From: Escherichia coli
GTDB taxonomy: Bacteria > Pseudomonadota > Gammaproteobacteria > Enterobacterales > Enterobacteriaceae
DNA length: 64,000 bases
Assembly (NCBI RefSeq): GCF_011045215.1
Contig: NZ_CP049201.1
Reading direction: 5' to 3' (one strand)
The notes below the pieces were generated by a model. The model saw nothing but the letters and a program-made list of their open reading frames with translations, made no database searches and had not been told where the DNA came from. Shown here piece after piece: positions 7,657-44,227 of this stretch (positions within the stretch are counted from its first letter, which is position 1; every line of letters starts with the position of its first letter). The position numbers and the translations under genes were made by a program.

Positions 7657-8874
7657 TCAGTGCCATTTCAGCCTGTTTTTGATGCTAAACACCTCCGTTT
7701 TCAGTTCACTGACCGTCATGTATTTTCCCCGCTGTTCATCCAGACGGTTCAGGCGCTCAGCCAGCTGCTGTAAGCGGGTCATGCCTTCGTTCCAGCCCGT
7801 CATTGCCTCTTCCGGGAGCGCACGACTCCTTATGCTCTTCTGCCAGTTATCCACCATTTCCTGAACACGGGGATTGCCGGGGAAAAGTCCCCTCAGTTGC
7901 TGCAGCAGCTGCGCACTGCGTTGCAGATTGTATGCCGGGGGTAATTGTGTCAGCCGCGTTATCTGCTGACCGGAAAGGGTTATCCACTCTGACGCATGAT
8001 TTAACAATGAGGATGTTCTGCTGAGCTGTGTCATCTGGTCTGCTGAAAGCACATCCGGTGGTGGTGTCAGCAGCGCCCTGAGTTGCTGCTCTGCCGGTGA
8101 TGACTGTGTCAGAAACTGCCATCCCGGAATGACCACGCTGACAGTCAGCAATGCCGCACAGACACCAGCCAAAAACGGCTTCAGAAACATGGACGGGAAT
8201 TTCTGAAGGGAGGGTGTGGGCTCTGTTTTTGTTTCAGAAACAACATACACCAGACGGGAGTGCGGCAGGGGCTGATGTTCCTGTACGTCCCGAGCATCAG
8301 ACCGGAGTGCCTGAGCCGGAAGGGTTACCGGAGACGACGCTTCGCCCTGTACAGGCTGGTTCTCCAGACGGGTGATATATCCCTTCACCATGGCTTCCGG
8401 CAACGCCACTTTACTGCTCTGTTTAAGTTCGTGCCGGGCCAGTGTGTCACTCAGTGCCTTCAGGAATGTTTCGGTCTGATACAGCAGGGGCAGATTGTCA
8501 CGGTCGTCCGGTGGCATGGCCCGGAGCGTTTTTTGCAGACGGTTGAACAGACCGGTAATAATTTCCAGCCGGGCATGGGTATTCAGCGGCCACATCACTG
8601 ACCAGTGATGCCGGGTCAGCGCCACAATCAGAGCCAGCCCTTCATTCAGGCCACTTAACCCTGTTGTATGCATCCGGGCAATGGTGTACCAGGATGCCGT
8701 CTGCAATTCCACGCCATTGTGTTCATACAGACGCAGGCAGAGCGTTTCCACGTAACGCCAGTCAACATCCGGGCGTGCCGGGTGGGTCAGTTTGCTGATT
8801 TCATCGCGCAGGGCAGCATAATCCGGTAATGACCGGGGGTCACCACCGGTTTTTAGTTTCACTTCAGAAGTCAT
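7657..8874 (-). CDS. ImpA_N-domain (TssA/VasL-like) protein with a central transmembrane helix
   Basis: 405 aa; N-terminal DWRYVETLCLRLYEHNGVELQTASWYTIARMHTTGLSGLNEGLALIVALTRHHWSVMWP follows the ImpA_N pattern; hydrophobic segment FLKPFLAGVCAALLTVSVVIPGW. Confidence 0.55.
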   Translation of the reverse strand: MTSEVKLKTGGDPRSLPDYAALRDEISKLTHPARPDVDWRYVETLCLRLYEHNGVELQTASWYTIARMHTTGLSGLNEGLALIVALTRHHWSVMWPLNTHARLEIITGLFNRLQKTLRAMPPDDRDNLPLLYQTETFLKALSDTLARHELKQSSKVALPEAMVKGYITRLENQPVQGEASSPVTLPAQALRSDARDVQEHQPLPHSRLVYVVSETKTEPTPSLQKFPSMFLKPFLAGVCAALLTVSVVIPGWQFLTQSSPAEQQLRALLTPPPDVLSADQMTQLSRTSSLLNHASEWITLSGQQITRLTQLPPAYNLQRSAQLLQQLRGLFPGNPRVQEMVDNWQKSIRSRALPEEAMTGWNEGMTRLQQLAERLNRLDEQRGKYMTVSELKTEVFSIKNRLKWH

Positions 8875-9299: not shown

Positions 9300-11126
<1,827 letters not shown>

Positions 11127-11222: not shown

Positions 11223-11798
11223 TTAAAAACGATAACCAACTCCAACAGTAAATCCATTGACCGAATGTTTTCCATATATATCTGCTTTAGTTCCCTCATA
11301 CCCAACATTTACAGACATATTGCCCCACGGATTAATAATAACACCAGCTGCATAAGCAAAATCAGTGGATTTTTTTGATACAGACTCACTTAAATATCCA
11401 TCAGATTCATCAGCACCCACACTGTTTCTCCACTCATAATCTCCCTTCGCTTTAGTATGAGATATCCCCACCAAACCATAAAAACTGATATAGTCATTCA
11501 GACGATAAGCTGGGCCTGCGAGAAATGAATAATATTTAATATCAGCCTGCTGTCTGTAAAAATCGTCAGCTTCATCGCGATGACTGTCCGCCCAGTCACC
11601 TTTCATATACGAAAAACTCCCGACAACACTGACCGGAGAATCCCACTCATATCGATATTGCAGATTCACTCCTTTAATATTCTTAAAGTCCTGTACCTTA
11701 CTCTGAGCATAACCAGCCGATAGCGTATGATTATCAGCCAGTGTTGAACCACTCATAACAGATAATATCATTACTGAAATTATAACGAGTTTTTTCAT
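11223..11798 (-). CDS. Ail/Lom/PagC/OmpX-family outer-membrane beta-barrel protein
   Basis: 191 aa, signal peptide MKKLVIISVMILSVMSGSTLA, alternating aromatic beta-strand pattern, C-terminal GVGYRF. Confidence 0.8.
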   Translation of the reverse strand: MKKLVIISVMILSVMSGSTLADNHTLSAGYAQSKVQDFKNIKGVNLQYRYEWDSPVSVVGSFSYMKGDWADSHRDEADDFYRQQADIKYYSFLAGPAYRLNDYISFYGLVGISHTKAKGDYEWRNSVGADESDGYLSESVSKKSTDFAYAAGVIINPWGNMSVNVGYEGTKADIYGKHSVNGFTVGVGYRF

Positions 11799-12380
11799 TT
11801 AACCCTCCTTCATTAATAAATGATTTCTGAAAATCAAAAAGGACCACACATCACAAAACATTATTTGAAATCATCATCAAAAAACTATAAATATATCACC
11901 TGACGATTTGAACACACTGACAAAAAACCAGGCATGGTAATAAACCGAACTCCCCACAAACTTCTGTTGCCTCAGATACCACAGCCACTTTCCTCAGGTA
12001 TAAATGTTGTTCCATAACGAACCAGCCCTGTATCGTTAAATCCTGCCTCAGTGACATAATGTAACTCACCAGACTGAGTCTTCGCCTACATCATCATTTC
12101 AATACGCTTAATACATTATTCATAATATCCAGAATTTCCTATAGAATATTTACTTTGCTATATCAGTCGGTCCATAATCAGGCAAATCATTAATGCTTCC
12201 TGACTGAATATTTAAAATGCGTCACATGTTATCAAAAATTTAAAGAATACCCTATTCTTCTTCATTGGCCGGATTTAGCTCAATCTTGTCAACAAAACTA
12301 ATATAAAGCCGTTCATAAAGAGAAGGATGTAGCTTCGTTATTTATCTTTTACATGTAACAGTACCAGGGGATATTCCGCA

Positions 12381-12453
12381 CATCTCTGTGGCTATCATCC
12401 CCACCACATCGCCGGTGGCAGCACCTGCGGCACCAGCAAGAACGTTATTTCCC
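12381..12453 (-). other. Remnant of cdiA pretoxin-region sequence (second, degenerate orphan module)
   Basis: 73 bp about 89% identical to cdiA 14621-14693; encodes ...GNNVLAGAAGAATGDVVGMIAT then diverges and stops after about 15 codons. Confidence 0.7.
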
Positions 12454-12467: not shown

Positions 12468-12728
12468 TCAGGATCCTGACGAGGGCGTTTTTCGAGCCTT
12501 GCGTTCGTCCAATTTGGTGAAGATCCACGATCTAAATGCTGCTGCAGTTCCAACAATAACACTAGCAACTAAAATATTTTCAAGATCTGATTGCTTAATA
12601 TTCACTTCATGGCTAATAACAAACTTAACTACTATCAGAGTCAAGGAGAAGAATATTAAGCAGCAGAAAATCATGTACATAATACTTAGGAGCAGTAAAC
12701 CTACAGTAGCTTTATTTTTTCGTTCCAT
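12468..12728 (-). CDS. Orphan CdiI-type immunity protein (small two-TM membrane protein)
   Basis: 86 aa, two hydrophobic helices, overlaps the end of the orphan toxin ORF by 17 bp; position directly after a VENN-toxin module. Confidence 0.55.
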   Translation of the reverse strand: MERKNKATVGLLLLSIMYMIFCCLIFFSLTLIVVKFVISHEVNIKQSDLENILVASVIVGTAAAFRSWIFTKLDERKARKTPSSGS

Positions 12729-13314
12729 TTATCTCATCTTTAACTGCATTGCTGATAAATTCACCACCTATAGCACCAATAATATCACCTGAAGGCACTG
12801 AACCTGGACCTAAAACAGGGCTAAATACCGGCGGTGCAACTACTCCAACTACAGTACCGAATACCCAACCAGCTCCCGTACCAGCTAAAGCACCTTTATC
12901 TGGTCCATCAATAAATAGAGTTCCACCTGCCGCTATCCCTGCGTTCTGCCATATATTTCGACCTGGAGCCAGCGCTCCAGTAATGCCTGCCGAGGCACTT
13001 CCCCAGTAATCCCAGCTCTTGTTTTCATTGCCTGGTTTGCTCAAGTCGTACCACTGATACGTACCATTGGCAATGGCTGAGATGACTGCGCCACTGACTA
13101 CTTTACCTGTTGATGCTGCAGGTCCTAAATACCAGGCACCTGCAATCAATACGCCATCTTTATAGCCATCAACTATCACTTTACTTATATTGGCACCTTC
13201 AGGTAACTCACCTTTGGCAAGTTTATCCAGTCCTGCCTGCTTCTGTTCCGGGGTGAGATTATTGGCATCAGCATACTGATTCCATGAGGAAACCGCCTGA
13301 CCATAACTCACCAT
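12712..13314 (-). CDS. Orphan CdiA C-terminal toxin module (glycine-rich, membrane-active type)
   Basis: Reading frame opens just after the main cdiI stop; in-frame VVVENN (VENN at 13336-13347) precedes the first ATG (13314); Gly/Ala-rich hydrophobic segments as in the main CdiA-CT. Confidence 0.65.
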   Translation of the reverse strand: MVSYGQAVSSWNQYADANNLTPEQKQAGLDKLAKGELPEGANISKVIVDGYKDGVLIAGAWYLGPAASTGKVVSGAVISAIANGTYQWYDLSKPGNENKSWDYWGSASAGITGALAPGRNIWQNAGIAAGGTLFIDGPDKGALAGTGAGWVFGTVVGVVAPPVFSPVLGPGSVPSGDIIGAIGGEFISNAVKDEINGTKK

Positions 13315-13352
13315 TCCTGATGGCAGACTGAGCGCATTATTCTCAACAACAA

Positions 13353-13571
13353 CTATTTACGATAGTATCTTCGCATTTGTAGATAGAGTTGTAACCAAAT
13401 CCCAGCACCTCCCCATAAGCCAACTACTGCGCCAATTATTCCGTATTTTACATACACCTCAGAAGGTATTGGTTCCCGAGCTATAAACCAGATACTAACC
13501 ACTATTCCAATAGAGCAAGTAGCTATAGATATAAGTAACAACTTAATAAGAAGTAGTAGATGTTTTTTCAT
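13353..13571 (-). CDS. cdiI: CdiI immunity protein (72 aa, two TM helices)
   Basis: Start overlaps the cdiA stop (ATGA at 13568-13571); hydrophobic two-helix protein. Confidence 0.7.
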   Translation of the reverse strand: MKKHLLLLIKLLLISIATCSIGIVVSIWFIAREPIPSEVYVKYGIIGAVVGLWGGAGIWLQLYLQMRRYYRK

Positions 13572-16500
13572 TTTTTGTCTCCATCAACTTCTTTTTGCGT
13601 TGCGCTGCTTGCACCTTCTGATACGAATGAACCAACAAATCCACCAAATGTTCCTGGTATAGAACTCATTTGGCCGCCTTGATACATACCGTATCCGATA
13701 GACTTTTCCGAATATTGCAGTGAATATTTACTGGCGTCCATTCCCAGTTGATTTTTGATGTATTGAGCTTCTAACTTATTAGTAATTGAAGCGCCAATGT
13801 TATAGCCAAGGCCTGTACCAGCCATGCTACCCACTACTGATGCGGTACTGTCCTGGCCTTCAATCTGGCTGCTCATGTAAGCGCTACCGGCACCCAACAA
13901 CTGGTTAGCGTAATATCCTTTCCCGGCTGTACCTACACCAGTCAAGCCTGACATCATGAAACTGAGATAATCGAACTTATCACCGATATTTCCCGTACCA
14001 ATTTGTACCGCACCATTAGCCCCATAGCTCAGCCCGGCACTAACAAATTTTTCCGTCAGCGTGGCTGATGACGTTAACAACGAACCCGCTCCGGCAACCG
14101 TACCCCAGTAATTTTCCGGTTCCCCGAAGAAAGCCAGAGCCCTGTCACCCTTCGACGTATTACTGTTCAGATAATTCAGGTCGTAGCTGTTGCCTTCAGC
14201 CACGTAATCCTTCACCTCCTGATTAGTCAGTGAACCATACAGCCAGCTAGGTCGGCCCGCCGCGCTGAGCCCGCCCTCAATATTCCATTTATCTTCCCCG
14301 GACAGAGCCGTCAGAGGATCTGCGGCCACATCAATGTGTAATTTCTGTCGGTTCTCTGCGCTTAATACAGCATATTTATTCTGAATATCGCCGCAGTCTC
14401 CACCCGCTTTACGACAGGCCGTCATTTCTCTGTCAAAAGCATGCGCCTCGTCGTAGCTGAGGTAGTTATTCTCAACTGTTGTCTTACCTGACTGTGCGCC
14501 GGCTACCGCTGAAGCCCCCGAGTCGCCCACCAGACCACCGGCCAGGCCGGCAGCAACCGTTGCCAGCGTGGAGACCGTCTGTTTCTCTGTCTCACTCAGT
14601 TCACTCACCGGTTTATCGTACATCTGTGTGGCTATCATTCCCACCACCTCGCCGGTGGCTGCACCTGCAGCACCGGCAAGAGCATTATTTCCCTGTGCCA
14701 GAGACAGTGCGGCATTCACCACGGCATGGGCGGCCACATTTGCAGCCTTATTCACCTCACCTGTAACCGGGTCTGTGGTCATGGTTTTCACCACTTCAGC
14801 CAGATACGGTGCTGCACCACCTGCCAGGGCTGCACTCAGATTACCGCCGGCCAGCCCCTGTACTGCTGCCGTTGCGGCCTGTATCGCCTGCTGGTATTTG
14901 CCTCCCGTTCCAAAACCGGAGGCCGCCATACCGTTATTGTAAGCCCGCTGTGCCACATCCTGTTCCGTGAACGGTTTTCCTGCTGCCTCAAGCTCTGCAC
15001 GGGCCTGATTCAGTGCTGCCGGGTCCCGTTTCGCTTTCTCACCGGCTATCTGTCCTTCCGTTCTGGCAATATCTGCCACCTGGTTACCAATCTCACCAAT
15101 GAGTTGCGCCTGCTGCAACCGCTGCTGCTCTTTTTCCCTGTCAAAGATGGGGGACAGCGTCTGGTTTGCATGCGCAACGTCACGGTTCAGGTCTGCCACA
15201 TCCTGTTTCTGGCTCTGTGTATCCCGGATAGTGATATTCCCGGCAGACACAGCCGACTGCGTGGTACTGTCCGCATGGCCTTCATGATTTGCACCGACCA
15301 GCAGATTGTTTGCCATGTTCCCCAGGAAATTTCCGGCAACACTGCCACCGGTACTGAGCCCTGCACTCTGATGTTCCGTTTTAAAGTCAGCCCGGTTTTC
15401 AGTGTCACTGAAGCCCAGTGTGCCGGTATCCAGCCTGTTTTTATCTGCCGTTGCCGTGGACGCAATCACCGCACCGTTCAGTTGTGTATGCTGTCCGGTC
15501 GTGACATCAAACCCGCCCCTGCCGGCAAAAATCCCTGTCTGCTCCTGCACACTGTCGTGGTTACTGTGCATTTTATCCCGGCTGAGGCTCACACTCGCCG
15601 AACCGCTCATGGACCCGAAAGTGAAGCTGCCTCCGGCGCTGGCATTCTGCTGTTTACTGTCATAATGGTCACTGTCCTGCTCACTGGTCAGTGTCAGATG
15701 GCGACCGGCATCCACTTTCACGGTTTCTCCACTGGCCTGCGCCCCGGTAAGTGTGGTGTCACGCCCACTGATAATGGTCAGCTGTTTTCCCGCATCCACC
15801 GTGGTTTCTGTATGGGTGGTACCGTTGCCTTTTTCACTGCCCTTACCCTGGTTTGCGCTGGCTGACAGACTGAAACCAGGCCCTCCGGGCCCCACACCGA
15901 TACCGACACCCACGCTGCCACCACTGGATGTGTTCTTTCCTTCCAGCTTTGACGTGTTTTCTGCTGATACCAGATTCACGTCACGGTTTGCCTGCAGCAG
16001 AACGTTGTTCCCGGCCTTTATCTGACCGCCCTGTATCGTCAGGTCACCATCCACGCCCTTCACGCCGGAGCCGGTGGCCTGAATACTGAGGTTATTACCT
16101 GCGGTCAGTGTACTGCCCTTCGCCACCGTCTGCTCTGACTGCTGTTCTGATTTCGAAGACTGGCTGCCGTAAGAGAGGCTGATACCCACGGTATTGTTAT
16201 TCTCTTTCTGGTTGCCCTGTGCTTCTGCCAGTCGTCCGGCCTGCACGGCCTGAGCCCCCGAGAGCGCGGCCTTCACCCCCTGCAGGGCTTCAAGCCGGCT
16301 GTTTCCGGCAGATTTCGCCGCCTGTACGGTCTCCACCGTCGTGTTCAGGGCGCTGCCCGCTGTGCCGGACAGGGCAAGCGTCAGACCGGAGGTTTTCTGC
16401 TCCACCGTATGTGTCTGCACATGCCGGTCAGTGGCGGCGGTAATGCTGACCTCCTTACCACTGAGTGCCATGTCCCTGCCGGCAATCAGGTCAGAGCCGT

Positions 16501-19500
16501 TGACGGTCAACCGGTTACCTGCCTGAAGGGAAACATCACCGTGAACACTCCCCACCGTGCTGCCTTTCTGCGTGGTGTCTGTTGCGGTGTCCGTGACCTT
16601 CAGACTCTGGCTGCCCACGCTGAATCCCACACCTCCGGAGCTCATCAGTCCGGATTTTTTCTCCTGTTTCAGGTGTGTTTCACGGTTGCTTTCTGTCAGC
16701 GTTCCGATACTCAGGTTATTTCCGGCAGCCAGGGAGACACGGTTATCCCCGGCCACACTGCTGCCCGTGACGTTCAGATTATGTCCGGCACCGATACTGA
16801 CCGTATCCCCGTTCAGTTCACTGCCCGTCATGGTCCGGCGGTCAGTGACATCATGCGTGGTAGTGGTGGTTTTCGATAACATCCCGCTGTTGCCGGTCAC
16901 TTTATGGTATTCATCCAGCGAGCGGGTATTCTGTGCACCGGTCAGCGTCACGTCATGACCCGCCATCAGGGCCAGGCCTTTCTGAGCTGACAGCAATGCC
17001 GCCTGTGACGTCATATCCCGTCCGGCGGTCAGCGTGACATCACCGTTACCGGCAAGCGTGCTGCCCGTACTCTGTGTGACGCCCTGCGACAGACGATTAT
17101 TTTTATCCCAGATAATATTGTCCTGCGCGGATGTGGTCACTGTGGAGAATGTCATATCCCTGCCGGCACTGAGTTGCGTCAGACTGTCCTTACCCTGGTT
17201 CACCACCGTTGCTGCCGTCAGGTTTATGTCCCGTCCGGCCTGCAGCACCAGTCTGCCCTGGTCATTCTGCACATATACGCCAGCCACACTGTCGATGCTG
17301 GTACGTTCAAAATGGTTCTGTCCGGCGTCACTCTGTGCCGTACGGGTGGTGGTGGTCAGACTGATATCCCGTCCGGCCATCGCCAGCAGGCTGTCCGTGG
17401 CCTGCAGCAGCCCGCCGGTACTGTTAATATCCGTCCGGGCCGTCAGGCTGACATTTGCTCCCTGAATGGTGCCGGCCTGGTTGTGAATGTTTTCTGCACT
17501 GAGCTGCACGGCCTGCTTCCCGGCCAGTTTACCGCTGTTAAACAGGTCACCATCCAGCTTCATCACCATGTCCCTGCCGGCAATCAGCGCACCGGCACTG
17601 TTCACATCACCGGGTTTTACACGGGCATACACCTGAGGTACCTGAACCGTCTGCGTGCTGCCGTCCGGCAGTGTCACCGTGGTGTTAACCAGCCAGACAA
17701 TATCACCGGTCAGTAACGCCATCTGCTCAGCAGTCAGCGCCACACCTGGTGTCAGGTTGTATTGCTTACCAAATGCAATACCCGCATCCATTAACGCCTT
17801 AAACTGCTCTTCATCATTACTGTATCCGTCCAGGTACCGTTGCCCGGTCAGAGCGACAACCTGCTCACGAATCAGACGCTGTTCGTAAAAACCATCCCCC
17901 AGGCGTTTGAGCATGTTATCCCCGTTCTGAGAAAACGCCTTCTGCATGTAATCACTGCCCAGCCACGTCTTCTGGTTCGTAAAACGCGGGTCCGTTTCAA
18001 CCAGATATGGCACATTCACTGCCGGATTTGTTTTAAACAGGCTGCTGTCCGGCAGACGGGTATCCGGCCCGGCAACATGGATACTGCCCTGAGGTGCGCT
18101 GACTTCAAACTGCTGCCCCGGCAACAGAATGACCGGTTCACCGGCTGACACCACCGGGCGAAGCGGTATCCGGTCAGTAACGGCTACTGTCGCATCCACA
18201 TTTCCGGTCAGTCCTGTCTGTACATCCGTTCCCTGTGGCTTCAGGGGAGAAAGCGTGACCTGGCTGCCCTGAACCTGTCCGTGGCTGGTGAGCTCTCCCG
18301 GCTTCAGCGTGATGGTCTGAATGACGGGGGGCGGCTCGTAAGGGGAAATTCTTTCCCCCTGCCTGTCATTTTTATTTTTTCTTTTTATCCGGTAATAATA
18401 TGTGGATGTCCCTTTATCAGTAACATGGCGCTCTCCGCTGACACTGACGTTTTCCACATCACCGGCCTGCATATCCAGCAGACCACCTGCAACCACCTGG
18501 CTCTTGTCATTAAGCAGTTTGTCTGCCACAACCGTCATGCCGGCACCGGACAGTATTTTCCCCGGGTCGGAGTCTTTTACCCGGGTTTCCTCCACGGTAC
18601 GGGTGTATTCATATTTTGTGAACCGGTCGTTGTTATGTCCGGTATCATCCGGCGTGTTCAGGTTCAGCAGTCCATCAGAGGAGTTGTTATCAATGAACAC
18701 CCCCTCATCTTTTGCATTCCAGCGGACATCTGACCCGCGATGCTGATACTCAGTCACCTTTTCCGTGGAAACCACCACGCGCTCCGTGGTGAAATGGTCA
18801 TTGACGTTATTGATTTGTCCGGCACTCAGTACCAGATATCCGGCGGCTTCAATAGTGGCACTGTGATTATTCAGTACACCGGTTTTACCTGTGGCGGTGC
18901 CATTCGCATCCAGCGTGCCACCGATATGCATATCACCTGCACTGTAAATCAGGCTGTGCGTCCGGTTATTCAGGGTCTGTACCCCCAAGTCCACACGCTC
19001 ACGCCCGGCCAGCGTCGCCGCCACGCCATTTTCTTCCAGATTATTAAATGTGGCAGCACTGACACCAACAGCATCGCCGTAGATTCGCCCGGTACCGGAA
19101 TTCGTCAGGGTGTTCGCCTGAAGATGCGTATATTTCCCGTCAATCAGCCCACGGTTCAGCAGTGTGTCCGTCACGTTAAGCCAGGTCTGCCCGGCACTGA
19201 TTTCACCTTTCCCGGTGTTTTCAAGGCGGATGCTGTTCAGGTCAAGTCGGCTGCCTGCCAGCAGGCTGCCGGTATTAGAGACATCGCCATTAACGGAAAG
19301 CGTAAGGTTTCCGTTCGCAATAGTCTGACCACTGTTACTGAACGCTGTGTTACTTTTCAGCGTTATATCGCCCGGGGAAAGCAGTTTCCCGTCACCACCG
19401 AGCTGACCGGCATCCACAGAGACTGACTGCCCGGCCTTAACCACACCGTCACGGTTCGAAAACGCCAGCTGACGGCCACTGACAGACAATGTCGCGCCGG

Positions 19501-22500
19501 AAGAGAGCACGCCATCATTATTACTGAGCGTCCTGTCTGCCATAACCGTAAGCGCCCTGTCTGCCAGAATACTGCCCTCCTGGTTATCAAGGTCCTGCGT
19601 CGTGATGTGTATTGTCTGCGCTTCCAGCCCCTGGCCGGTATTCTGCGTGTGGCGATTGATAAACTGCAGGGCGTTCAGCGTAATGGCAGAACCACTGCGA
19701 ATCAGACCAGAGACGTTGTCCACAACGCCCCGTACACTGTCGAACAGAATGTCGCCCACAGACTGTATCTGTCCGTGGCTGTTCTGCAGGCCTCCCGTAT
19801 GCAGACGGAGTTCACCTTCACTGACCAGCCGGCCACCCTCACGGTTATCCAGCGAGGTGGTGCTCAGGTCAGCTGTCGTTTTCGCCCCCACGGTCCCGCC
19901 CCGGTTATCCATTGCTCCGGTACTGACAGTCAGTTCCTGCAGGCTGTTCAGCGTACCCCCTCTGTTATCCAGCGTCCGGCCTGCGCTATTAATGCTGATG
20001 CCTTTCCCCTGAATAAGACCGGACTGATTGTTCAGCGCCAGACTGTTCCGGCCGGGCAGACCGGTCGCCACAATCTGACCATTCGCCACCACCTGACCGG
20101 ATGTATTGTTAACCACGCCTGCAGTCAGGGACAGCGCATCTCCCGACAAAAGCACACCGGCAGTGCTGTCCAGTGTGCCGGCATTCAGCGTCATCGGGCC
20201 CTGACTGATAACCCCGCCCCGGTCACCACTGTTACGGTTGCTCAGTGTGTCAGCACGGAGATTCAGTGTGGCACCGCTCTGTATCAGACCACCTGCATCA
20301 TTGCTGATATCCGTCGAGGAAAGGGTCAGTGACTGCTGTGCCACCAGTCTGCCGCCCTGATTATCAGAGCGGGTGACATCCAGCCTGCTGTTACCGTTGC
20401 TGACCACCGTCCCCTGCTGATTTTCCAGCACATTCAGGTGCGCATTCAGGTCCCCGCCGGCGGCAAGCGTCCCTTCCTGATTACTGACATCGCCACCACT
20501 CAGCAACATATCCGTCCCGGCCTTCAGTGCGCCTTTCTGGTTCATCAGCGTACCTGACGATATCTGTAATGACGCCTGACTCCCCAGCACGCCCTGACGG
20601 TTATCGAGCGTTCCGGCGTTCAGGGTCATATCCTTCTGACCCGCCATAAATCCCTGCTGGTTATTCAGCATACCGGCCCGTACTGTCAGGGTACCGGCGC
20701 TGCTGATACCACCCCGTGTTTTCGTGTTCCGGTTACTGAGAACCCCGTCCTGTACATCCAGCGTCATGTCACTGCCGGACTGAATCAGACCATCATCAGA
20801 GACCAGTTCGCTGCCTGACACAGACAGCGTTTTCTGTGAAAGCAGTCTGCCGGACGTATTATCCAGCGCACCATCCAGCGTCACGGACAGCCCGTCAGAC
20901 ACCACCGTACCCTGGTGGTTATTCAGACTCCCTGCCGAAATATCCAGCCTGCCGGCGGACTCCATTCGTCCCTCAGTATTGCTGACAGCCTGCTGTGTTT
21001 TTATCCTGCCCGTTCCGGCAGCAGCTGAAATCAGTCCGTTGTCGTTATTCAGTGCCTGTGTATTAATCAGGATGTCACGGCTGGCAATCAGACTTCCCTG
21101 CTGGTTATCCACGGCGCCGGTTGTCCTCACCTGCAGACTACCTGACTGCGCCGCCTGCACTTTCCCCCTGCGATTATCAAGGCTCAGTGCATCCAGGCGC
21201 ACCGCGCCATTTGCCGCAAGCAGCCCTTCCCGGTTATCCACGCTTCCCGGCAGACTCAGCGAAAAATCCCCTGTTCCCGTCTGAATCAGACTGCCTTTAC
21301 GATTTGACAGGCTCTGTGCCGATATCTGCAGTGTGTCGGCATTTACCGTGCCACCATTATTGCTGAACTGCCCGGCAGTCCGGGCGGAAAGCGTACCGGC
21401 ACTCAGTTGTGCATTCTGTGTGGACAGATTTCCGCTGCCTGCATCCAGCTCAGTATGTTGTCCCTGTATCCGGCTGTTGCTTAAATCCAGCCCCTGCCCC
21501 TTCAGTTGCATGTCCCCACCGGACAGAACCTGTCCGTGTGCCGCCAGTTCGCCGGTGGTACTGACAGTCAGGTTGCCCGCTGCCGCCAGACGTCCGTCAT
21601 CTTTCACCCCGGCGGCCAGCAGACTCCGCTCACCGCCGGTCAGACGCGCTGTCTGAATCCGGGTGTTGCGGCGTGATGCCACAGAGCCTGTATGGGTGAA
21701 TGCACCATCACTCTGTATCTGCGTATCCTGCCCCGCATAAACAGAACCACTGTTATGCAGCTCCCGGGTTGTCGCCAGATGCACATCCGTTTTCGCACTG
21801 ATACTGCCACTGTTTTCAATACGTCCGTCAGCCGTCAGGGTAACCGCCCCTGCCTGCGCACCAATATGACCGGCGTTACGAACCCCCACCCCCGTTTCCG
21901 TACCGACAAGGCGAATTTTTCCGGCATACATTCCACCAAGGCTGGACACATCCAGCGCCACCTGTGGCTGCGAAGAGGCATCAGCGGCTTTTTTCTCAGT
22001 CTGCCCGTGTGCAATATCCACATTGTTACGTCCGGTGGTCACTTTCAGGTCCTGCGCCCAGATACCCGCATTAATCTTCACAGACCGGGCAATGATATCG
22101 GTATAATCCGTGCGCGAGGCATCCATCCCTTTGCCCGTAATCTGAATCTCACCACGTTCAACACTGAATCCGGTCAGACTGCCGTTTTTCATCTGAGGCT
22201 GCCCCGTGGTCAGCGTGGCCCGGTTCGCATTAATAAAACCGCACCCGTCGCAACTGATGCCGGCCGGGTTCGCAATCACCACCTGCGCCTTTTTCCCGGC
22301 AACCTCAACAAAACCGTTCAACTGGCTGGGATTGCGACTGTTCACTTCATTAAGAATGATTCGGGCCTCTCCCTTCGCCAGCCACGGGTTACCGGCAACC
22401 ATGCCGCCCAGTTGGGTCTGCACATTTTTATGCGAGTTATTCAGAATGACACCCTGATGACTGACATCAAACTGACTGTAAGTATTGTGCGATACCCCAC

Positions 22501-22804
22501 CTGCAGAAGGTGTCTGGATATTGACCTGAGGAATGCCGCTGGCTGTCTGCGTAATCGTGGGCTGCTGATGCCCCGGTGCGCCATGGTCTGCGACAATGCC
22601 TGCAGCACTGACAGAATGCACCATCCCCGAGGCCAGCCACAGGGAGAATGCAAGCGATGTGACACGGCAGATACGTTGCCTGCGTGGATATCCTGTACGG
22701 GAGGAGGGTGATGCACCGGCGCGACCGGAACGGGCAATATCTGCCACCACCATCAGCATTCCCCGGGCTTTGTTAAAAATAATGCGGTAACAATTTTTGT
22801 TCAT
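13568..22804 (-). CDS. cdiA: CdiA contact-dependent inhibition toxin / TpsA exoprotein (3078 aa)
   Basis: Extended signal peptide MNKNCYRIIFNKARGMLMVVADIARS, TPS domain, long filamentous-haemagglutinin repeat region, VENN motif at 14465-14476 followed by a 298-aa Gly-rich C-terminal toxin domain. Confidence 0.95.
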   Translation of the reverse strand: MNKNCYRIIFNKARGMLMVVADIARSGRAGASPSSRTGYPRRQRICRVTSLAFSLWLASGMVHSVSAAGIVADHGAPGHQQPTITQTASGIPQVNIQTPSAGGVSHNTYSQFDVSHQGVILNNSHKNVQTQLGGMVAGNPWLAKGEARIILNEVNSRNPSQLNGFVEVAGKKAQVVIANPAGISCDGCGFINANRATLTTGQPQMKNGSLTGFSVERGEIQITGKGMDASRTDYTDIIARSVKINAGIWAQDLKVTTGRNNVDIAHGQTEKKAADASSQPQVALDVSSLGGMYAGKIRLVGTETGVGVRNAGHIGAQAGAVTLTADGRIENSGSISAKTDVHLATTRELHNSGSVYAGQDTQIQSDGAFTHTGSVASRRNTRIQTARLTGGERSLLAAGVKDDGRLAAAGNLTVSTTGELAAHGQVLSGGDMQLKGQGLDLSNSRIQGQHTELDAGSGNLSTQNAQLSAGTLSARTAGQFSNNGGTVNADTLQISAQSLSNRKGSLIQTGTGDFSLSLPGSVDNREGLLAANGAVRLDALSLDNRRGKVQAAQSGSLQVRTTGAVDNQQGSLIASRDILINTQALNNDNGLISAAAGTGRIKTQQAVSNTEGRMESAGRLDISAGSLNNHQGTVVSDGLSVTLDGALDNTSGRLLSQKTLSVSGSELVSDDGLIQSGSDMTLDVQDGVLSNRNTKTRGGISSAGTLTVRAGMLNNQQGFMAGQKDMTLNAGTLDNRQGVLGSQASLQISSGTLMNQKGALKAGTDMLLSGGDVSNQEGTLAAGGDLNAHLNVLENQQGTVVSNGNSRLDVTRSDNQGGRLVAQQSLTLSSTDISNDAGGLIQSGATLNLRADTLSNRNSGDRGGVISQGPMTLNAGTLDSTAGVLLSGDALSLTAGVVNNTSGQVVANGQIVATGLPGRNSLALNNQSGLIQGKGISINSAGRTLDNRGGTLNSLQELTVSTGAMDNRGGTVGAKTTADLSTTSLDNREGGRLVSEGELRLHTGGLQNSHGQIQSVGDILFDSVRGVVDNVSGLIRSGSAITLNALQFINRHTQNTGQGLEAQTIHITTQDLDNQEGSILADRALTVMADRTLSNNDGVLSSGATLSVSGRQLAFSNRDGVVKAGQSVSVDAGQLGGDGKLLSPGDITLKSNTAFSNSGQTIANGNLTLSVNGDVSNTGSLLAGSRLDLNSIRLENTGKGEISAGQTWLNVTDTLLNRGLIDGKYTHLQANTLTNSGTGRIYGDAVGVSAATFNNLEENGVAATLAGRERVDLGVQTLNNRTHSLIYSAGDMHIGGTLDANGTATGKTGVLNNHSATIEAAGYLVLSAGQINNVNDHFTTERVVVSTEKVTEYQHRGSDVRWNAKDEGVFIDNNSSDGLLNLNTPDDTGHNNDRFTKYEYTRTVEETRVKDSDPGKILSGAGMTVVADKLLNDKSQVVAGGLLDMQAGDVENVSVSGERHVTDKGTSTYYYRIKRKNKNDRQGERISPYEPPPVIQTITLKPGELTSHGQVQGSQVTLSPLKPQGTDVQTGLTGNVDATVAVTDRIPLRPVVSAGEPVILLPGQQFEVSAPQGSIHVAGPDTRLPDSSLFKTNPAVNVPYLVETDPRFTNQKTWLGSDYMQKAFSQNGDNMLKRLGDGFYEQRLIREQVVALTGQRYLDGYSNDEEQFKALMDAGIAFGKQYNLTPGVALTAEQMALLTGDIVWLVNTTVTLPDGSTQTVQVPQVYARVKPGDVNSAGALIAGRDMVMKLDGDLFNSGKLAGKQAVQLSAENIHNQAGTIQGANVSLTARTDINSTGGLLQATDSLLAMAGRDISLTTTTRTAQSDAGQNHFERTSIDSVAGVYVQNDQGRLVLQAGRDINLTAATVVNQGKDSLTQLSAGRDMTFSTVTTSAQDNIIWDKNNRLSQGVTQSTGSTLAGNGDVTLTAGRDMTSQAALLSAQKGLALMAGHDVTLTGAQNTRSLDEYHKVTGNSGMLSKTTTTTHDVTDRRTMTGSELNGDTVSIGAGHNLNVTGSSVAGDNRVSLAAGNNLSIGTLTESNRETHLKQEKKSGLMSSGGVGFSVGSQSLKVTDTATDTTQKGSTVGSVHGDVSLQAGNRLTVNGSDLIAGRDMALSGKEVSITAATDRHVQTHTVEQKTSGLTLALSGTAGSALNTTVETVQAAKSAGNSRLEALQGVKAALSGAQAVQAGRLAEAQGNQKENNNTVGISLSYGSQSSKSEQQSEQTVAKGSTLTAGNNLSIQATGSGVKGVDGDLTIQGGQIKAGNNVLLQANRDVNLVSAENTSKLEGKNTSSGGSVGVGIGVGPGGPGFSLSASANQGKGSEKGNGTTHTETTVDAGKQLTIISGRDTTLTGAQASGETVKVDAGRHLTLTSEQDSDHYDSKQQNASAGGSFTFGSMSGSASVSLSRDKMHSNHDSVQEQTGIFAGRGGFDVTTGQHTQLNGAVIASTATADKNRLDTGTLGFSDTENRADFKTEHQSAGLSTGGSVAGNFLGNMANNLLVGANHEGHADSTTQSAVSAGNITIRDTQSQKQDVADLNRDVAHANQTLSPIFDREKEQQRLQQAQLIGEIGNQVADIARTEGQIAGEKAKRDPAALNQARAELEAAGKPFTEQDVAQRAYNNGMAASGFGTGGKYQQAIQAATAAVQGLAGGNLSAALAGGAAPYLAEVVKTMTTDPVTGEVNKAANVAAHAVVNAALSLAQGNNALAGAAGAATGEVVGMIATQMYDKPVSELSETEKQTVSTLATVAAGLAGGLVGDSGASAVAGAQSGKTTVENNYLSYDEAHAFDREMTACRKAGGDCGDIQNKYAVLSAENRQKLHIDVAADPLTALSGEDKWNIEGGLSAAGRPSWLYGSLTNQEVKDYVAEGNSYDLNYLNSNTSKGDRALAFFGEPENYWGTVAGAGSLLTSSATLTEKFVSAGLSYGANGAVQIGTGNIGDKFDYLSFMMSGLTGVGTAGKGYYANQLLGAGSAYMSSQIEGQDSTASVVGSMAGTGLGYNIGASITNKLEAQYIKNQLGMDASKYSLQYSEKSIGYGMYQGGQMSSIPGTFGGFVGSFVSEGASSATQKEVDGDKK

Positions 22805-22819
22805 TCTGATAAACCTGAC

Positions 22820-23347
22820 TTATCTCTCCGGCACATCCACAGCAAGCGGGTGCTGCACACGCCACTGGCGCGCCTCTTCACGACTGACCTGTGCACCCCG
22901 GAAATTCATCACCCGCAACCCGGTCTGCTGCCCACGGTGGTACAGCGAACGCCAGCACAGACGGGGAAAAATATCCTGCCGGACAAGACGACTCATATCC
23001 GGGGTATGTCCAAAAGGGGCAATCCAGTCACAGACCCACATCCGGTCGCCGCTGTTCCAGTCCGACTGAGGCATGAGAATTGCCGGCTGCGTAAGATAAC
23101 GCGCCTCTGCCTCCGGGCTGAGCCAGGCCTGGCTCATGAAGAAAACCGGTCGCCCCTGCTCTGTTGCCACCACATACTGTCGGTGCTTAATCACCGGCAG
23201 CAGCAGGTCCGGCAGGGTATGCAGTGGCGCATCACGATGCAGGGGGGAGTGCATCCACAACCAGACGGCCGCCCCCAGAACTTCCGCCTCATTGACCGGC
23301 TCACCGGAATACAGGGGACTCAGAACGTCATATTTCCCGTTACGCAT
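22820..23347 (-). CDS. cdiC: CdiC, HlyC-family toxin-activating lysine acyltransferase
   Basis: 175 aa; VWLWMHSPLHR and SGDRMWVCDWIAPFGH match HlyC/CyaC acyltransferase motifs; sits between cdiB and cdiA. Confidence 0.85.
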   Translation of the reverse strand: MRNGKYDVLSPLYSGEPVNEAEVLGAAVWLWMHSPLHRDAPLHTLPDLLLPVIKHRQYVVATEQGRPVFFMSQAWLSPEAEARYLTQPAILMPQSDWNSGDRMWVCDWIAPFGHTPDMSRLVRQDIFPRLCWRSLYHRGQQTGLRVMNFRGAQVSREEARQWRVQHPLAVDVPER

Positions 23348-23356
23348 GAAATTTTC

Positions 23357-25096
23357 TCAGAAATCCCGGAACAGATTAAAACCGGCTGTCACATCACTCG
23401 TCATAAAACCCGCCGGTTTTGAAAACGGACGACCGATGAAAACGTCATAATCCGTACTGAACAGTTGCCCCCTCAGCCCCACAACACCACCGGCCAGATG
23501 ACGTCCCACCAGGTATTCACTGCCGGCTCCCCCCACCTCGCCGTAATCCATTCCCAGATATAACGCCTGCTCCGGCAGTGGCGTACGCCAGGCCAGGTCG
23601 TTGCGGATATACCAGCCGTTACTGGCATTCAGCGTTCGCTCCCCGTCAAAACCACGAACCGTCCAGCGGTTACCGATGGCAAACTGTTCCTGTGGGGTCA
23701 GCGGGGTATTGCTCAGCTGGCGCTGATACCGGAAGGAATAACTGAAGGGCTGCCCTGCAAGGGTAAAGGGCAGATTAAAGGATGCATTCAACTGCAGGAT
23801 CTTACTGAGCGCCGTTGCCTCACCGAACGTTTCTTCCGGCGCCGGCTGTGCACCAAACCAGCGGGTTCCCCGTTGCCAGCTGACACCAGCATCCAGTGTG
23901 GCCTGAGAAATATAATGACGGTGCTGCAGCCCAAGTCGCCAGGCCGCTGTCTGCCGGCGCTGCACCTGGATTTCCGTATCATTAATGTAGTTACGCGACC
24001 TGCGGGCCTGAACATCGTAGGTCAGCACCGTTTTCTGCGTCCCGTTACGGTGCAGTACCCGGCTCAGCTGCATACCCAGATTCTGACTCTCGCCACTGTA
24101 CTGGTAATCCTCAACCGCACCAGCTACCGTCTGATGGTAATCGTAATCACTGGCGGTGACGGAAAACTGCCAGTAGCCGAAAGGCACAGAGTAATGGGCC
24201 GTGTAGTTTTTACTGCCCTTACCCCCGTAATGTGGAAAATTACGGGTGGCAGAAACATACAGCAGGTCACTCAGGGAAAAAGGATTATCCAGAGAAAATG
24301 TTATACCACCGAGATAACGCCCTGTGCTGCGGGTACCTGAATCATCAAGCGAAAACCCCAGTCGCCAGTATTTGTCCTGTTTGCGGGTAATAAGAATGTC
24401 ACTTTCCCCTGGCTGCTCACCGGGTACAATTTCCATATCAGCCTGCACACCCGGCAGTCGTTGCATATTCTCCAGCCCCTGCTCAATGTCCCGTAAATCC
24501 AGCAGAGAACCTTCGTGTGCCGGGAATGAGGAATACAACTGAATATAGTCATCACTGTCCGGTGTCAGACGCACATGTCGCACAACACCGGGAATAACAA
24601 CCAGCCGGAGGATACCGCTTTTTAAATCCTGCGAAGGTGCCAGAACACGGGTGGTGACATAACCATGATCGACCAGACGGTTCTGCAATGTACTCATCAG
24701 CAGATTAATTCCTTTCGCCCCCAGGCAATGCCCGACCGCCCCGTTGGCGATTTTTTGTAAAGGCAGCCAGTGTGGTAACGCATCAGCCCCCTCCAGTTCC
24801 GTCTGTTTAATCTGAAAACAGGGCGTTTCAACAGGAAAATTAATCTTACGGGCAAAAGAGCCAGGTGCAGAAAGGCGAACATCAGGGGCTGAAGGCGTCA
24901 GTTGTTGCTCAAGGGCTTCCTGACGCTGCTGCTGAATGATAAATGCATTATCTCCGCTACGCCGGACATCCGCGGCCTGAAGAGATAAAGGCGATAATAA
25001 AACAGACATCAGTGTCAGTGACAGCAAGGACGGACAGCGCCGGAATACGCTTTGTTCCTCAGCCCTCTCGTTCCTGCAACATAATTTTCCAGTCAA
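23357..25096 (-). CDS. cdiB: CdiB, TpsB/ShlB-family outer-membrane transporter
   Basis: 579 aa, signal peptide, POTRA plus beta-barrel, C-terminal aromatic residue; 9 bp upstream of cdiC. Confidence 0.9.
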
Positions 25097-25687
25097 ACGA
25101 AAAACCTTTTATTCATGTCATACCAACAATCACCAGCCTCCTGACGATACCTCCCACCATGTTTTGCGATGGTACGCTACCGCCCTTCCGGTATTTACCC
25201 GCATCAACCGGTACCAGAATGTTGAGTAATAAATTTGTCAACTCTGAATTGGTTTAATTTTGATCATTATAGAATGAAGATCTGAAAATTCTCAATATTG
25301 CAGACATATCGATCGATATGTAGTTATCACGTAGTTATTTATTCCAACTAATATCGCAAAAGCAGCATATTGCAAAACTTATAACCACGGAGAACAAAAA
25401 ACGACAGAAAATTATTCCGTAAGATGCTTCAAATACAGCCAGTCAACACTGAAAAAAGTGATTTTTGATTAAAATCATTGAAGTTTATGCAGTACAGAAT
25501 CTGAGCGGTTCTCAGCGAAAGTCAGAAGAAAGGGAGGTGAGGTAAAAGGCAGAAATCAGAGTGACAGGAATGCACAAAAAGCAAAAAAAAATCAACAAAA
25601 CAATAAATTAACATACCCCGAAAAAGCATCCGCAACGTACCGGGTAATAACAACAATATCGTGTAAAACAACATTGTTCCGGAAGTT

Positions 25688-27932: not shown

Positions 27933-28409
27933 ATGGTAACGCTGGCCATTAACCGTAAACCGCAGGGTATTTTCAGTAAGTCACCGGCAACGCCGCTGCA
28001 GGATAAAACGAACACAGTACACAACGAGAAGCCTCTTCGGGTGAGGAATCAAACACCATGGCGACATATGACAAAACGCCAGCGCAAAAACCGTAAGCGT
28101 ATAAATCGTCTTGTGGAACTCTGGCCTGAGTTATTCAACCGGGAAAAACCAAAACCGCTTAAAGTGGGGATACCTGACGACCTGATACAGGATATCGCCA
28201 TCAGAAAACTGGCGTTTGGCGCAGGTACATTACGCGCGGCAGTGGCGTCTTATGTGCAGTCTCCGCGCTATTACCGTACGTTAATGGCAGGTGGCGCCCG
28301 TTACGACCTGAAGGGGCAACCGTGCGGAGAGGTGACACCACATGAACAGAAAGAGGCAGAGAGCCGTTTAATGATGCTGAATGACCGACGAAAAGCCAGA
28401 AAGCGCTGA
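27933..28409 (+). CDS. ProQ/FinO-family RNA-binding protein
   Basis: LVELWPELFN...KPLKVGIPDDL...YVQSPRYYRTL...ARYDLKGQPCGEVTPHEQKEAESRL aligns closely with the ProQ N-terminal FinO domain; true start may be an internal Met. Confidence 0.8.
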   Translation: MVTLAINRKPQGIFSKSPATPLQDKTNTVHNEKPLRVRNQTPWRHMTKRQRKNRKRINRLVELWPELFNREKPKPLKVGIPDDLIQDIAIRKLAFGAGTLRAAVASYVQSPRYYRTLMAGGARYDLKGQPCGEVTPHEQKEAESRLMMLNDRRKARKR

Positions 28410-40233: not shown

Positions 40234-41237
40234 TGAGTTCCACCAGAACCGTTTTTCTTTTTGCTGCTGTTTTTGCGTTTATGCTGTTCGTACCTTTCTT
40301 TTGACGTACAAAGGAATCTTCCATAAACATTGCGGATATATGAGTTGATACACTCCAGCATTCTCTCTTTTCGTGATTTCCCTTTTTCCTTCGAATCTTC
40401 ACTTTGAACATTAATGTTCATCAGTTCTTTTATAAACTTATCCAGATTTTCCATGTCATAAAGCAGCATGAAAAACATCACATTTCCCAGTGATTCCAGT
40501 AACTGAGATTCAACCCTGTACCCATATTTTCTGAAACTTAGCCCTGTTAAAAACTGTTCAAACATTACCCCTGATTCAAAAAGAGATTTTAATCCCAGTC
40601 GCTTATATTCCAGGTAAAAAAGTTCAAACGTCGGGGATGCTGAACGGCAAATAAACGAAGACAGCGCCCATGGATCAAAATATGTAACACGCTTCCCCTC
40701 CCGCACTTCCTGCGGTGTCAGCGGCGGTTCAGCAAACCAGGCGTCCAGCTCAGCCGAATCGCTGTCCCTGCTCAAAACCTCATACAAACTGCCCGTGAAC
40801 GGTTGAGGCGGATTTTTGGTTGCTTCATCTTCTGATTGTCTGGATTGTCTGAATCCGTCCACTTTTCTCCGGATATTACGCGGGATCAGCATAAAAGGCG
40901 GGACATTAAGTGATAAATGTTTACCCGTCATGCGATACCATTGCCCCACCTCAACCTTAATCCGTGTATCTGGCCTTAGCTCAAGTGCTATTATGTTAAG
41001 CAGGTACAGATAACGCACCGTATAACAGTCAAAATGTTTCTCCGGATCAAACGGCTCTGACCCTTCTCTGCACACGAGTCCTCTGCGCTTCAGTATTCGC
41101 TGGGTATCTTTCCAGGCCTTACTCTGAAGAATGGTGGTAACTCTGGCCTTATTAACAATATCACGCAGTGCATCACCTTGTTGTGCCGTCATCCAACACC
41201 TCCCGCACTCTGTCACTCCAGATTTTTTCACGCCCAT
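40230..41237 (-). CDS. hypothetical protein (335 aa)
   Basis: ORF convergent with 39379-40233, 3' ends overlap by 4 bp; lysine-rich C-terminus. Confidence 0.4.
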   Translation of the reverse strand: MGVKKSGVTECGRCWMTAQQGDALRDIVNKARVTTILQSKAWKDTQRILKRRGLVCREGSEPFDPEKHFDCYTVRYLYLLNIIALELRPDTRIKVEVGQWYRMTGKHLSLNVPPFMLIPRNIRRKVDGFRQSRQSEDEATKNPPQPFTGSLYEVLSRDSDSAELDAWFAEPPLTPQEVREGKRVTYFDPWALSSFICRSASPTFELFYLEYKRLGLKSLFESGVMFEQFLTGLSFRKYGYRVESQLLESLGNVMFFMLLYDMENLDKFIKELMNINVQSEDSKEKGKSRKERMLECINSYIRNVYGRFLCTSKERYEQHKRKNSSKKKNGSGGTH

Positions 41238-41299
41238 ATTACCTGAATGATAAGCCGGATTAGTGTGATCCGGTTAGGTAAAATCAACAGGATACCGGT

Positions 41300-42184: not shown

Positions 42185-42302
42185 GCGCCCCGGAGTCCCC
42201 CGTGGCAACCGTATACCTTTACACGACAACGGATTACGGTAACCACTGCCGTATACCGTCTGTCATTATCAATAACACGCTCTTTAATTTCAGAGGTCAG
42301 TC

Positions 42303-42980
42303 ATGAATACCAGAATTCTTTTTCCCCTGCTGTTCACTGTGGCATCCTTCTCCGCCTCCGCCGGTAACTGGGCTGTCAAAAACGGCTGGTGTCAGACCAT
42401 GACGGAAGATGGTCAGGCGCTGGTAATGCTGAAAAATGGCACGATTGGTATTATCGGCCTGATGCAGGGATGTCCGAATGGCGTACAGACGCTCCTGGGC
42501 AGCCGTATCAGTATTAACGGTAACCTGATCCCCACATCACAAATGTGTAATCAGCAGACGGGATTCAGGGCTGTTGAGGTGGAAATCGGACAGGCGCCGG
42601 AAATGGTCAAAAAAGCCGTTCACTCCATAGCAGAGCGTGATGTGTCCGTTTTACAGGCATTTGGTGTACGAATGGAATTCACCCGCGGTGATATGCTGAA
42701 GGTCTGTCCGAAATTTGTCACATCACTTGCCGGTTTTTCCCCGAAACAGACGACCACTATTAATAAAGACTCCGTACTGCAGGCTGCCCGACAGGCATAC
42801 GCCCGGAAATACGACGAGGAAACAACAGAAACCGCTGATTTTGGCTCTTACGAAGTAAAAGGCAATAAGGTTGAGTTTGAAGTGTTCAATCCTGAAGACC
42901 GTGCGTACGACAAAGTGACCGTCACGGTTGGTGCTGACGGTAATGCCACCGGCGCCAGCGTTGAATTTATCGGAAAATAG
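42303..42980 (+). CDS. hypothetical secreted protein (225 aa)
   Basis: Signal peptide [20 protein letters not shown]. Confidence 0.5.
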
Positions 42981-42985
42981 CCGGT

Positions 42986-43219: not shown

Positions 43220-43317
43220 ACGTCTTCATTTCATCCATCAGGCCGCGTCTTCTCCGGGAGACGTGGCTTTTTCATTTATTACACCAGTAAATCTTAACCA
43301 CCGATAAGGAGCAAATT

Positions 43318-44136: not shown

Positions 44137-44227
44137 TGCTGTTTCCCTGAAAGTGCAGCCCTGACTCACGTCTGTACCAGTCCCCAGGCATTCTTCCATT
44201 CATTTGCTTTTTATAAGGAATAATCTC

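Follow-up and report, generated by a model that had tools for sequence, protein, structure and literature searches.

An apparently functional class IV locus for contact-dependent growth inhibition in Escherichia coli, with an EC93-type ionophore and a downstream orphan toxin/immunity pair

The stretch of DNA analyzed here (the window) comprises 64,000 nucleotides of Escherichia coli contig NZ_CP049201.1 (assembly GCF_011045215.1), and in all likelihood contains a complete and apparently functional class IV contact-dependent growth inhibition (CDI) system armed with an EC93-type ionophore, followed by a single orphan toxin/immunity pair. Open reading frame (ORF) calls placed four co-oriented and tightly packed genes on the minus strand between positions 13353 and 25096, in the order cdiB-cdiC-cdiA-cdiI. 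Gaps of 9 nt and 15 nt separate cdiC from cdiB and cdiA, between which it sits, and the start of cdiI overlaps the stop of cdiA by 4 nt. The frames of all four genes, including the 9.2 kb cdiA, are intact. The two-partner CDI set is present: a TpsB transporter whose domains include POTRA and ShlB, a TpsA protein with a TPS domain, filamentous hemagglutinin (FHA) repeats, a PT-VENN domain and a variable C-terminal region (CT), and a 3' immunity gene. An initial annotation of the sequence had described a complete locus of this kind; its four ORFs were all recovered, with Pfam supporting the identity of CdiB, CdiC and CdiA, an agreement too extensive to be fortuitous, but the span it gave stops short of the orphan module located directly downstream.

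The first gene, cdiB (23357..25096, minus strand), encodes an outer-membrane CdiA transporter of the Omp85/TpsB family. Its maximal ORF begins with a TTG codon and is 579 aa long, with a signal-peptide-like N-terminal stretch that ends at ...SLQA/AD and the Pfam domains POTRA_2 (residues 94-170), POTRA_3 (172-225) and ShlB (230-543, E=3.4e-109). An alternative ATG at 25009 (M30) would yield a protein of 550 aa, which is the length assigned by gene callers to near-identical loci. Approximately 170 nt upstream of the cdiB ORF lies a sigma-70-like sequence, TTGAGA-18-TATAAT (25266..25295, minus strand), which matches the consensus at 11 of 12 positions and was the top-scoring site in a 15-kb promoter scan. 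As the number of sites in the whole scan did not exceed that found in shuffled sequence, we count it only as a candidate promoter. The cdi locus of the STEC4 system is driven by a native promoter 5' of cdiB (Halvorsen et al. 2021, mBio, PMC8510554).

The product of cdiC (22820..23347, minus strand) is a 175-aa toxin-activating lysine acyltransferase of the HlyC/TAAT family, the enzyme type proposed in the initial annotation. It covers the full Pfam HlyC model PF02794 (positions 1-127 of 127, E=4.6e-32) and retains both members of the catalytic dyad, His37 (in PLHRD) and Asp107 (in VCDWIAPFG), numbered as in CdiC-STEC4. The protein is thus not unrelated to HlyC and, since the dyad is intact, it is probably not catalytically dead. 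CdiC of E. coli C5, annotated as 'toxin-activating lysine-acyltransferase', is identical to it at 174 of 175 positions, and C5 appears among the class IV systems in Fig. S5 of PMC8510554. Class IV CDI was defined in the same work by the presence of a cdiC cistron between cdiB and cdiA and by a diverged FHA-1/receptor-binding domain (RBD) for the lipopolysaccharide (LPS) core. There, CdiC-STEC4 uses His37 and Asp107 to put 3-hydroxydecanoate on Lys1467 of the RBD, and a K1467R substitution in STEC4 gives the same phenotype as a deletion of cdiC. The full-length Pfam match and the His/Asp dyad are also shared with the acyltransferases HlyC, CyaC and ApxC; in contrast to these enzymes, which act on RTX pore-formers, CdiC has a CDI RBD as its substrate and 3-hydroxydecanoate as the reported acyl group.

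The class IV effector gene, cdiA (13568..22804, minus strand), encodes a protein of 3078 aa with the architecture ESPR, TPS, FHA-1, FHA-2 and PT-VENN. Pfam identified an ESPR at residues 1-38 (22691..22804, minus strand, E=1.9e-10), a TPS secretion domain at residues 68-330 (21815..22603, minus strand, E=2.5e-57) and a PT-VENN pre-toxin domain at residues 2733-2783 (14456..14608, minus strand, E=9e-21), as well as hemagglutinin repeats in the N-terminal part of the protein and Fil_haemagg_2 in its C-terminal part. A single VENN motif is found at residues 2777-2780 (14465-14476, minus strand) and is followed by 298 residues, in full agreement with the extended signal peptide, TPS domain and VENN-delimited CT that had been described earlier. 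Residues 614-2783 are 97% identical to the class IV CdiA of E. coli C5.

The predicted LPS-core-binding RBD (approximately residues 1334-1610; 17975..18805, minus strand) is likewise 97% identical to its class IV counterpart in C5, and 119 of 158 residues (~75%) are identical in a comparison with the STEC4 segment, the latter taken from optical character recognition (OCR) text of Fig. S3 of PMC8510554. A Tyr-rich basic patch is visible in both proteins; it reads YYYRIKRK*NKN here and YYYRIRKK*GK for STEC4 (asterisk, acylation-site Lys). As these patches align, Lys1476 (codon 18377..18379, minus strand) is the equivalent of the acylated Lys1467. The CdiC dyad, the near-identical CdiC of C5, the RBD match and the equivalent of the acylated Lys, together with a gene order identical to that published, indicate that the class IV layout, which the initial annotation had proposed, is correct. 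Among the closest known systems is cdiBCAI-STEC4 of E. coli STEC_O31, which shares with the present locus the gene order, the length of CdiC, His37/Asp107, the five-part CdiA architecture, the Tyr-rich basic patch with its Lys, and an N-terminus of CdiA that is ~95% identical (281/295, again versus OCR text). It differs in its toxin, which is Ntox25 (PF15530), in its immunity protein, and in the residues flanking the acylated Lys.

The 298-residue CT is bipartite, with an entry domain of approximately 118 residues preceding an ionophore domain of 180 residues. The entry domain (CdiA residues 2781-2898; 14111..14464, minus strand) was recognized by a phmmer search against PDB entry 4g6u_A, which matched CT residues 9-159 with E=5.5e-14 and ~33% identity. 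CT residues ~9-125 correspond to the N-terminal domain of 4G6U, the CdiA-CT of EC869 o11, and a Cys pair at CT positions 21 and 28 is conserved between the two (CRKAGGDC versus CRKSGGNC). The similarity stops ahead of the DNase domain, and the search of the PDB with the CT sequence yielded nothing beyond this entry-domain relative. The N-terminal domain of 4G6U (EC869 o11/TA271) is a YciB-dependent cytoplasm-entry domain, and the choice of receptor is set by the entry domain. The window's toxin therefore resembles the o11 EC869/TA271 toxin in its N-terminal domain and its predicted YciB import route, whereas the C-termini differ: o11 EC869/TA271 ends in a DNase that depends on Zn and is paired with a soluble immunity protein, and the window's toxin ends in a membrane ionophore whose immunity protein is likewise of the membrane type.

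The ionophore domain itself (residues 2899-3078; 13571..14110, minus strand) is matched by no Pfam or NCBIfam model; scans of the CT and of CdiI against these collections gave just a weak CdiA_helical match, and ionophore-family members scanned singly gave only weak glycine-zipper matches. Its close homologs are restricted to Enterobacteriaceae and are mostly annotated as 'hypothetical'. An exhaustive profile search found the domain in 51 representatives, of which ~22 were retrieved, including CdiA fragments and short ORFs, with the domain located C-terminally. In an alignment of 20 family sequences from this search (A2), a conserved core is accompanied by a run of Gly residues at four-residue spacing; the Gly at position 97 of the toxin domain is invariant and that at position 101 nearly so. 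The initial annotation had suggested an alignment of the CT to that of EC93, and when the A2 profile was compared by hhalign to the founding CDI ionophore, the EC93 CT (true sequence, plasmid pCP127), the match reached 96.2% (E=2.5e-9, 88 aligned columns). An OCR version of the EC93 sequence gave 95.4% (E=1.7e-8). A narrow 8-sequence profile scored only 22% versus EC93, and the match became significant only once distant members had been added. The glycine zipper G2992-x3-G2996-x3-G3000-x3-G3004 (13793-13831, minus strand), contained in GSMAGTGLGYNIG, aligns with VGNAIGTALGNKAG of EC93, the zipper of which is formed by G168, G172 and G176.

Since glycine-rich sequences are prone to spurious matches, controls were run in which EC93 was shuffled 60 times over its whole sequence and 60 times over the matched core, and was also reversed. 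The top control score was 18.4, as compared to 54-62 for the real EC93 sequence. A compositional artifact was thereby rejected as the source of the match, and, as the controls score so far below it, the homology of the 180-residue domain to the EC93 ionophore is real. A likeness to Ntox25 (PF15530), the main toxin of most class IV loci, and to the STEC4 CT was also considered and rejected, as there was no Pfam match and hhalign to the STEC4 CT gave 1%. The toxin domain had been described as Gly-rich and hydrophobic; the first part of this description stands (44 of the 302 residues that begin with VENN are Gly, as are 18% of the final 180, and the sequence is rich in Gly, Ser and Ala), but the second does not in the classical sense, the maximal 19-residue Kyte-Doolittle value being 0.89, only mildly hydrophobic. 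AlphaFold2 run on A2 produced an all-helical model with five long helices (17-37, 47-60, 65-83, 87-121 and 149-178), at a mean pLDDT of only 61.7 and a pTM of 0.42. A Foldseek search with this model found no PDB match below E=1, a null that says little because the model is of low confidence.

A nuclease or another cytoplasmic enzyme could be imagined at the C-terminus, as most characterized CDI toxins are nucleases and the entry domain is common to a DNase toxin. This is extremely improbable: the match to 4g6u does not reach the DNase domain, the EC93 ionophore is a homolog of the final 180 residues, which keep its glycine zipper, neither Pfam nor NCBIfam returned an enzyme match, and the immunity protein is tiny and of a membrane type. 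No match to a nuclease family was found, and the earlier view that the toxin is not a nuclease but forms an ionophore or pore is supported.

The ionophore domain also carries a Gly-Lys (TAGK) that is almost invariant in the family, and such dipeptides are frequent targets of HlyC-type enzymes. CdiC might thus be supposed to acylate the C-terminal pore-former, as HlyC does with the RTX protein HlyA, and not the RBD. The same Gly-Lys is, however, found in ionophores of loci that have no cdiC, EC93 included, and cdiC accompanies the class IV RBD whichever CT is attached to it, be it Ntox25 or the present toxin, with the break in homology located at VENN. Moreover, in STEC4 the K1467R change in the RBD mimics the loss of cdiC (PMC8510554). 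Acylation of the CT is therefore very unlikely, and modification of the RBD is the predicted role of CdiC.

The immunity gene cdiI (13353..13571, minus strand) encodes 72 aa with two hydrophobic segments, a strong one at residues ~3-32 (Kyte-Doolittle 2.5) and a Gly-rich one at residues 43-66 (~1.5). The protein was earlier proposed to be a two-helix membrane protein, and its size and segments fit the family of 72-100-aa two-helix immunity proteins described by Halvorsen et al. (2024, PLoS Genet, PMC11630599). Its match to the CdiI of EC93 was suggestive at most (hhalign 44%), and no homology to the CdiI of the orphan module was detected (1%). In the EC93-homologue family of that publication, a predicted five-helix ionophore domain is joined to an N-terminal receptor-selecting entry domain and paired with such a CdiI, and the glycine zipper of helix 4 is the only shared sequence element. 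Group 4 of the family has entry domains resembling that of the TA271/o11 DNase; two CTs, CT-VREC0495 and CT-Eict, depolarize target cells, need yciB and are neutralized by the cognate CdiI, with DiBAC4(3) depolarization shown for group representatives including VREC0495 (PMC11630599).

By its TA271/o11-like entry domain, the CT of the window belongs to group 4 of the CDI ionophores, and YciB dependence is accordingly predicted from its sequence. At its 5' end, cdiI of the window coincides over 22 of 22 nt with ATGAAAAAACATCTACTACTTC, the 3' part of primer CH6268 (VREC0495-cdiI-Kpn-for; PMC11630599). As immunity genes within a group typically share ~30% identity, this match strongly suggests, but does not prove, that the toxin/immunity pair represents either the VREC0495 allele itself or one very closely related to it. 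The two systems have in common a YciB-type entry domain with a Cys pair, a helical glycine-zipper ionophore and a 72-aa two-helix CdiI. They differ in the length of CdiA, the VREC0495 protein having 3337 aa, 259 more than that of the window; a CdiA of 3078-3082 aa is absent from the catalogue in PMC11630599. EC93, an AcrB-dependent member of group 1, has a homologous ionophore core with the helix-4 glycine zipper and a CdiI that is also a small protein with two transmembrane segments (79 aa), whereas its entry domain is unrelated and uses AcrB, and its CdiA is a class I protein that binds BamA and is not accompanied by cdiC.

Entry might instead proceed through an inner-membrane protein that is not YciB, such as AcrB, on which EC93 and group 3 toxins depend, or SecY, the receptor of EC869 o10. 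The ionophore domain is common to groups with different receptors, and at ~33% the identity to the one YciB-type entry domain of defined structure is modest. Nevertheless, it is the entry domain that dictates the receptor, and that of the window matches o11/TA271 at E=5.5e-14 with its Cys pair kept; the group 4 toxins, which are defined by TA271/o11 similarity, are yciB-dependent (PMC11630599), and the start of cdiI is identical to the VREC0495 primer. A different receptor is accordingly unlikely, and YciB remains the predicted one.

By analogy with these published close relatives, the locus would operate as follows. CdiB would export CdiA to form a filament on the cell surface. CdiC, through His37 and Asp107, would move an acyl chain, probably a 3-hydroxydecanoyl group, from acyl-acyl carrier protein onto Lys1476 of the RBD, and the lipidated, basic, Tyr-rich tip would then bind the LPS core of a neighboring E. 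coli cell. The C-terminal region would enter the periplasm of the target and be released near the VENN motif, after which the entry domain would use the inner-membrane protein YciB to insert the glycine-zipper ionophore in the cytoplasmic membrane, causing the membrane potential to collapse. In the producer and its kin, the 72-aa CdiI would bind the ionophore in the membrane and neutralize it. The published mechanisms suffice for this locus, and the system is one that is already understood: it is a new allele combination of two well-characterized modules, the class IV delivery platform and a group 4 YciB-type ionophore, to which a group 3 orphan is added.

The distribution of the components was surveyed in complete E. 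coli genomes. Of 5,426 examined, 178 cover 80% or more of the locus, so that the class IV backbone is common, and the CT/cdiI module is present in 96, full-length in 40. Wherever it was inspected in these genomes, the module was an orphan: in the O157:H7 strain FRIK944 it is the first orphan after a tRNase cdiA, and in strain C5 it lies two modules downstream of an Ntox25 class IV cdiA. A contiguous fusion of the class IV backbone to the present CT was found in none of the 5,426 genomes. Two draft E. coli assemblies, GCA_009820775.1 and GCA_012442205.1, do carry it; they are collinear with the window at 97.7-98.2% identity over 11.2 kb and have an open frame of ~3080 codons, and the downstream flank of GCA_012442205.1 is 99.84% identical to that of the window.

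Compared to C5, the homology of the window switches from the main cdiA of that strain to its orphan module inside the 11-nt VENN-coding sequence. Ntox25 is the main toxin in five of the ten contexts listed (L007, L008, L010, L013 and L016), and at locus coordinates 9699-10219 these five loci contain only a decayed, 101-aa remnant of the window's toxin, yet retain behind it the exact 72-aa CdiI. An index of the assembly collection lists this exact CdiI sequence in 433 blocks. One possible explanation, which we advance tentatively and consider somewhat doubtful, is that the window captures a class IV locus that has switched toxins in nature, the toxin that those loci keep as a remnant being fused here, exactly at the 11-nt VENN sequence, to a CdiA predicted to be lipidated and LPS-binding.

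Class IV loci are often broken in complete genomes; those of C5 and GXU-23-25-310 have a split cdiB and a pseudogenized 5' end of cdiA. The locus of the window might by the same token be a silent or decaying remnant with no role in competition, either unexpressed or with its CdiA blocked from LPS by O-antigen, which is described in PMC8510554 as shielding the receptor in broth culture. Such a scenario is quite improbable, as the four frames are intact, the catalytic and acceptor residues are kept, a promoter-like site with 11/12 matches lies upstream, and the ~3080-codon frame is intact in the two further assemblies as well.

Several points weigh against the reading of the locus as a complete and functional class IV system with a YciB-dependent ionophore. 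The frequent decay of class IV loci in E. coli genomes is one, and because of it expression of the locus is not to be taken for granted. The entry domain is just ~33% identical to the structurally characterized YciB-dependent domain, and the link to CT/CdiI-VREC0495 is the 22-nt primer match only. The residues around the acylation-site Lys differ (RIKRKNKN in the window, RIRKKGK in STEC4), so that efficient acylation of Lys1476 is a prediction. The AlphaFold2 model of the ionophore domain is of low confidence (pLDDT 62), with no match in the PDB fold search, and the start codon of cdiB is ambiguous (TTG or ATG), the sole coordinate uncertainty in the locus. Finally, the present allele is known here from sequence alone.

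The orphan cdiA-CT (12712..13347, minus strand) opens directly behind the stop codon of cdiI, with VVENNALSLPSGMVSYG...; its VENN (13336-13347, minus strand) is thus directly 3' of cdiI. This 207-residue CT is a group 3, AcrB-type ionophore CT. It matched the ionophore profile by hhalign (97.2%, E=4e-11) and the EC93 CT by BLASTP (E=1e-6), and its residues 1-81 show two substitutions relative to CT-88-H13-A in the S2 Appendix of PMC11630599. The cognate orphan cdiI (12468..12728, minus strand) encodes 86 aa with two hydrophobic helices, and residues 1-81 of its product are identical to chain B of CdiI-88-H13-A in the same appendix. The CT/CdiI-88-H13-A pair, which comes from E. coli 88-H13-A, belongs to group 3 and depends on AcrB (PMC11630599). 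Beyond the orphan cdiI, at window positions ~12376-12453, approximately 2 kb are missing in comparison with two assemblies that have the same locus (L011/L012, 11196-13264). In those assemblies the missing segment lies between the orphan cdiI and an Ail/Lom gene; it encodes a 354-aa PT-VENN protein, which is a second orphan, and also holds a DUF2569 gene.

The genes further downstream begin with an Ail/Lom/OmpX-family outer-membrane protein, below the NCBIfam cut-offs (11223-11798, minus strand), and a 608-aa NERD/UvrD-like helicase (9300-11126, minus strand), both of which are also neighbors of the locus in related E. coli assemblies. The segment 1497-8874 looks like the edge of a mosaic island, where an IS4-family transposase (1497-2912) is followed by an SF1 helicase of 893 aa, weakly similar to anti-phage helicases (4349-7030), and by a type VI secretion fragment that resembles TssA/ImpA_N (7657-8874). 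In the island upstream of the cdi locus, a 158-aa ORF (27933-28409) has a FinO/ProQ-family RNA-chaperone domain, below the cut-off. A CP4-44-type island segment at 41000-47000 combines genes for a GTPase, DUF932, antirestriction and DUF5983 with a toxin-antitoxin pair. Many E. coli genomes match it at 93-94% identity, and it is multi-copy (median, 3 places in each genome). The region 48822-63271 includes core genes (a setB-like gene, a drug/metabolite transporter gene and nlpA), followed by a low-GC block (~37%) that encodes type III needle-tip proteins resembling SipD/IpaD (53411-55192 and 56379-57728) as well as a regulator of the HilA/EilA family that scores above the curated cut-off (57931-59628). 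After the regulator comes a 1197-aa intimin/IatC-like inverse autotransporter (59678-63271). We take the low-GC block and the inverse autotransporter to resemble the eip/eilA/air island of enteroaggregative E. coli.

In the public annotation the toxin and immunity genes of the locus are both 'hypothetical protein'. For this reason, and because no Pfam or NCBIfam model covers this ionophore domain, labeling the group 4 ionophore and its CdiI, together with the group 3 orphan, is useful curation; beyond correct annotation the importance of the finding is small. If the fusion at VENN arose in the orphan-to-main direction, the locus would be a field example of the recombinational promotion of an orphan toxin, and the weapon of this strain would be less effective against E. 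coli that retain the immunity gene as an orphan, of which there are many. The wide orphan carriage of the matching immunity gene in any case bears on the effectiveness of the toxin in natural E. coli populations. Taken together, the data indicate that the class IV platform, with its predicted lipidation and LPS targeting, is not bound to Ntox25 and can deliver an EC93-type ionophore, by way of what is predicted to be a different inner-membrane receptor; the locus thus illustrates the modularity proposed earlier for CDI systems.

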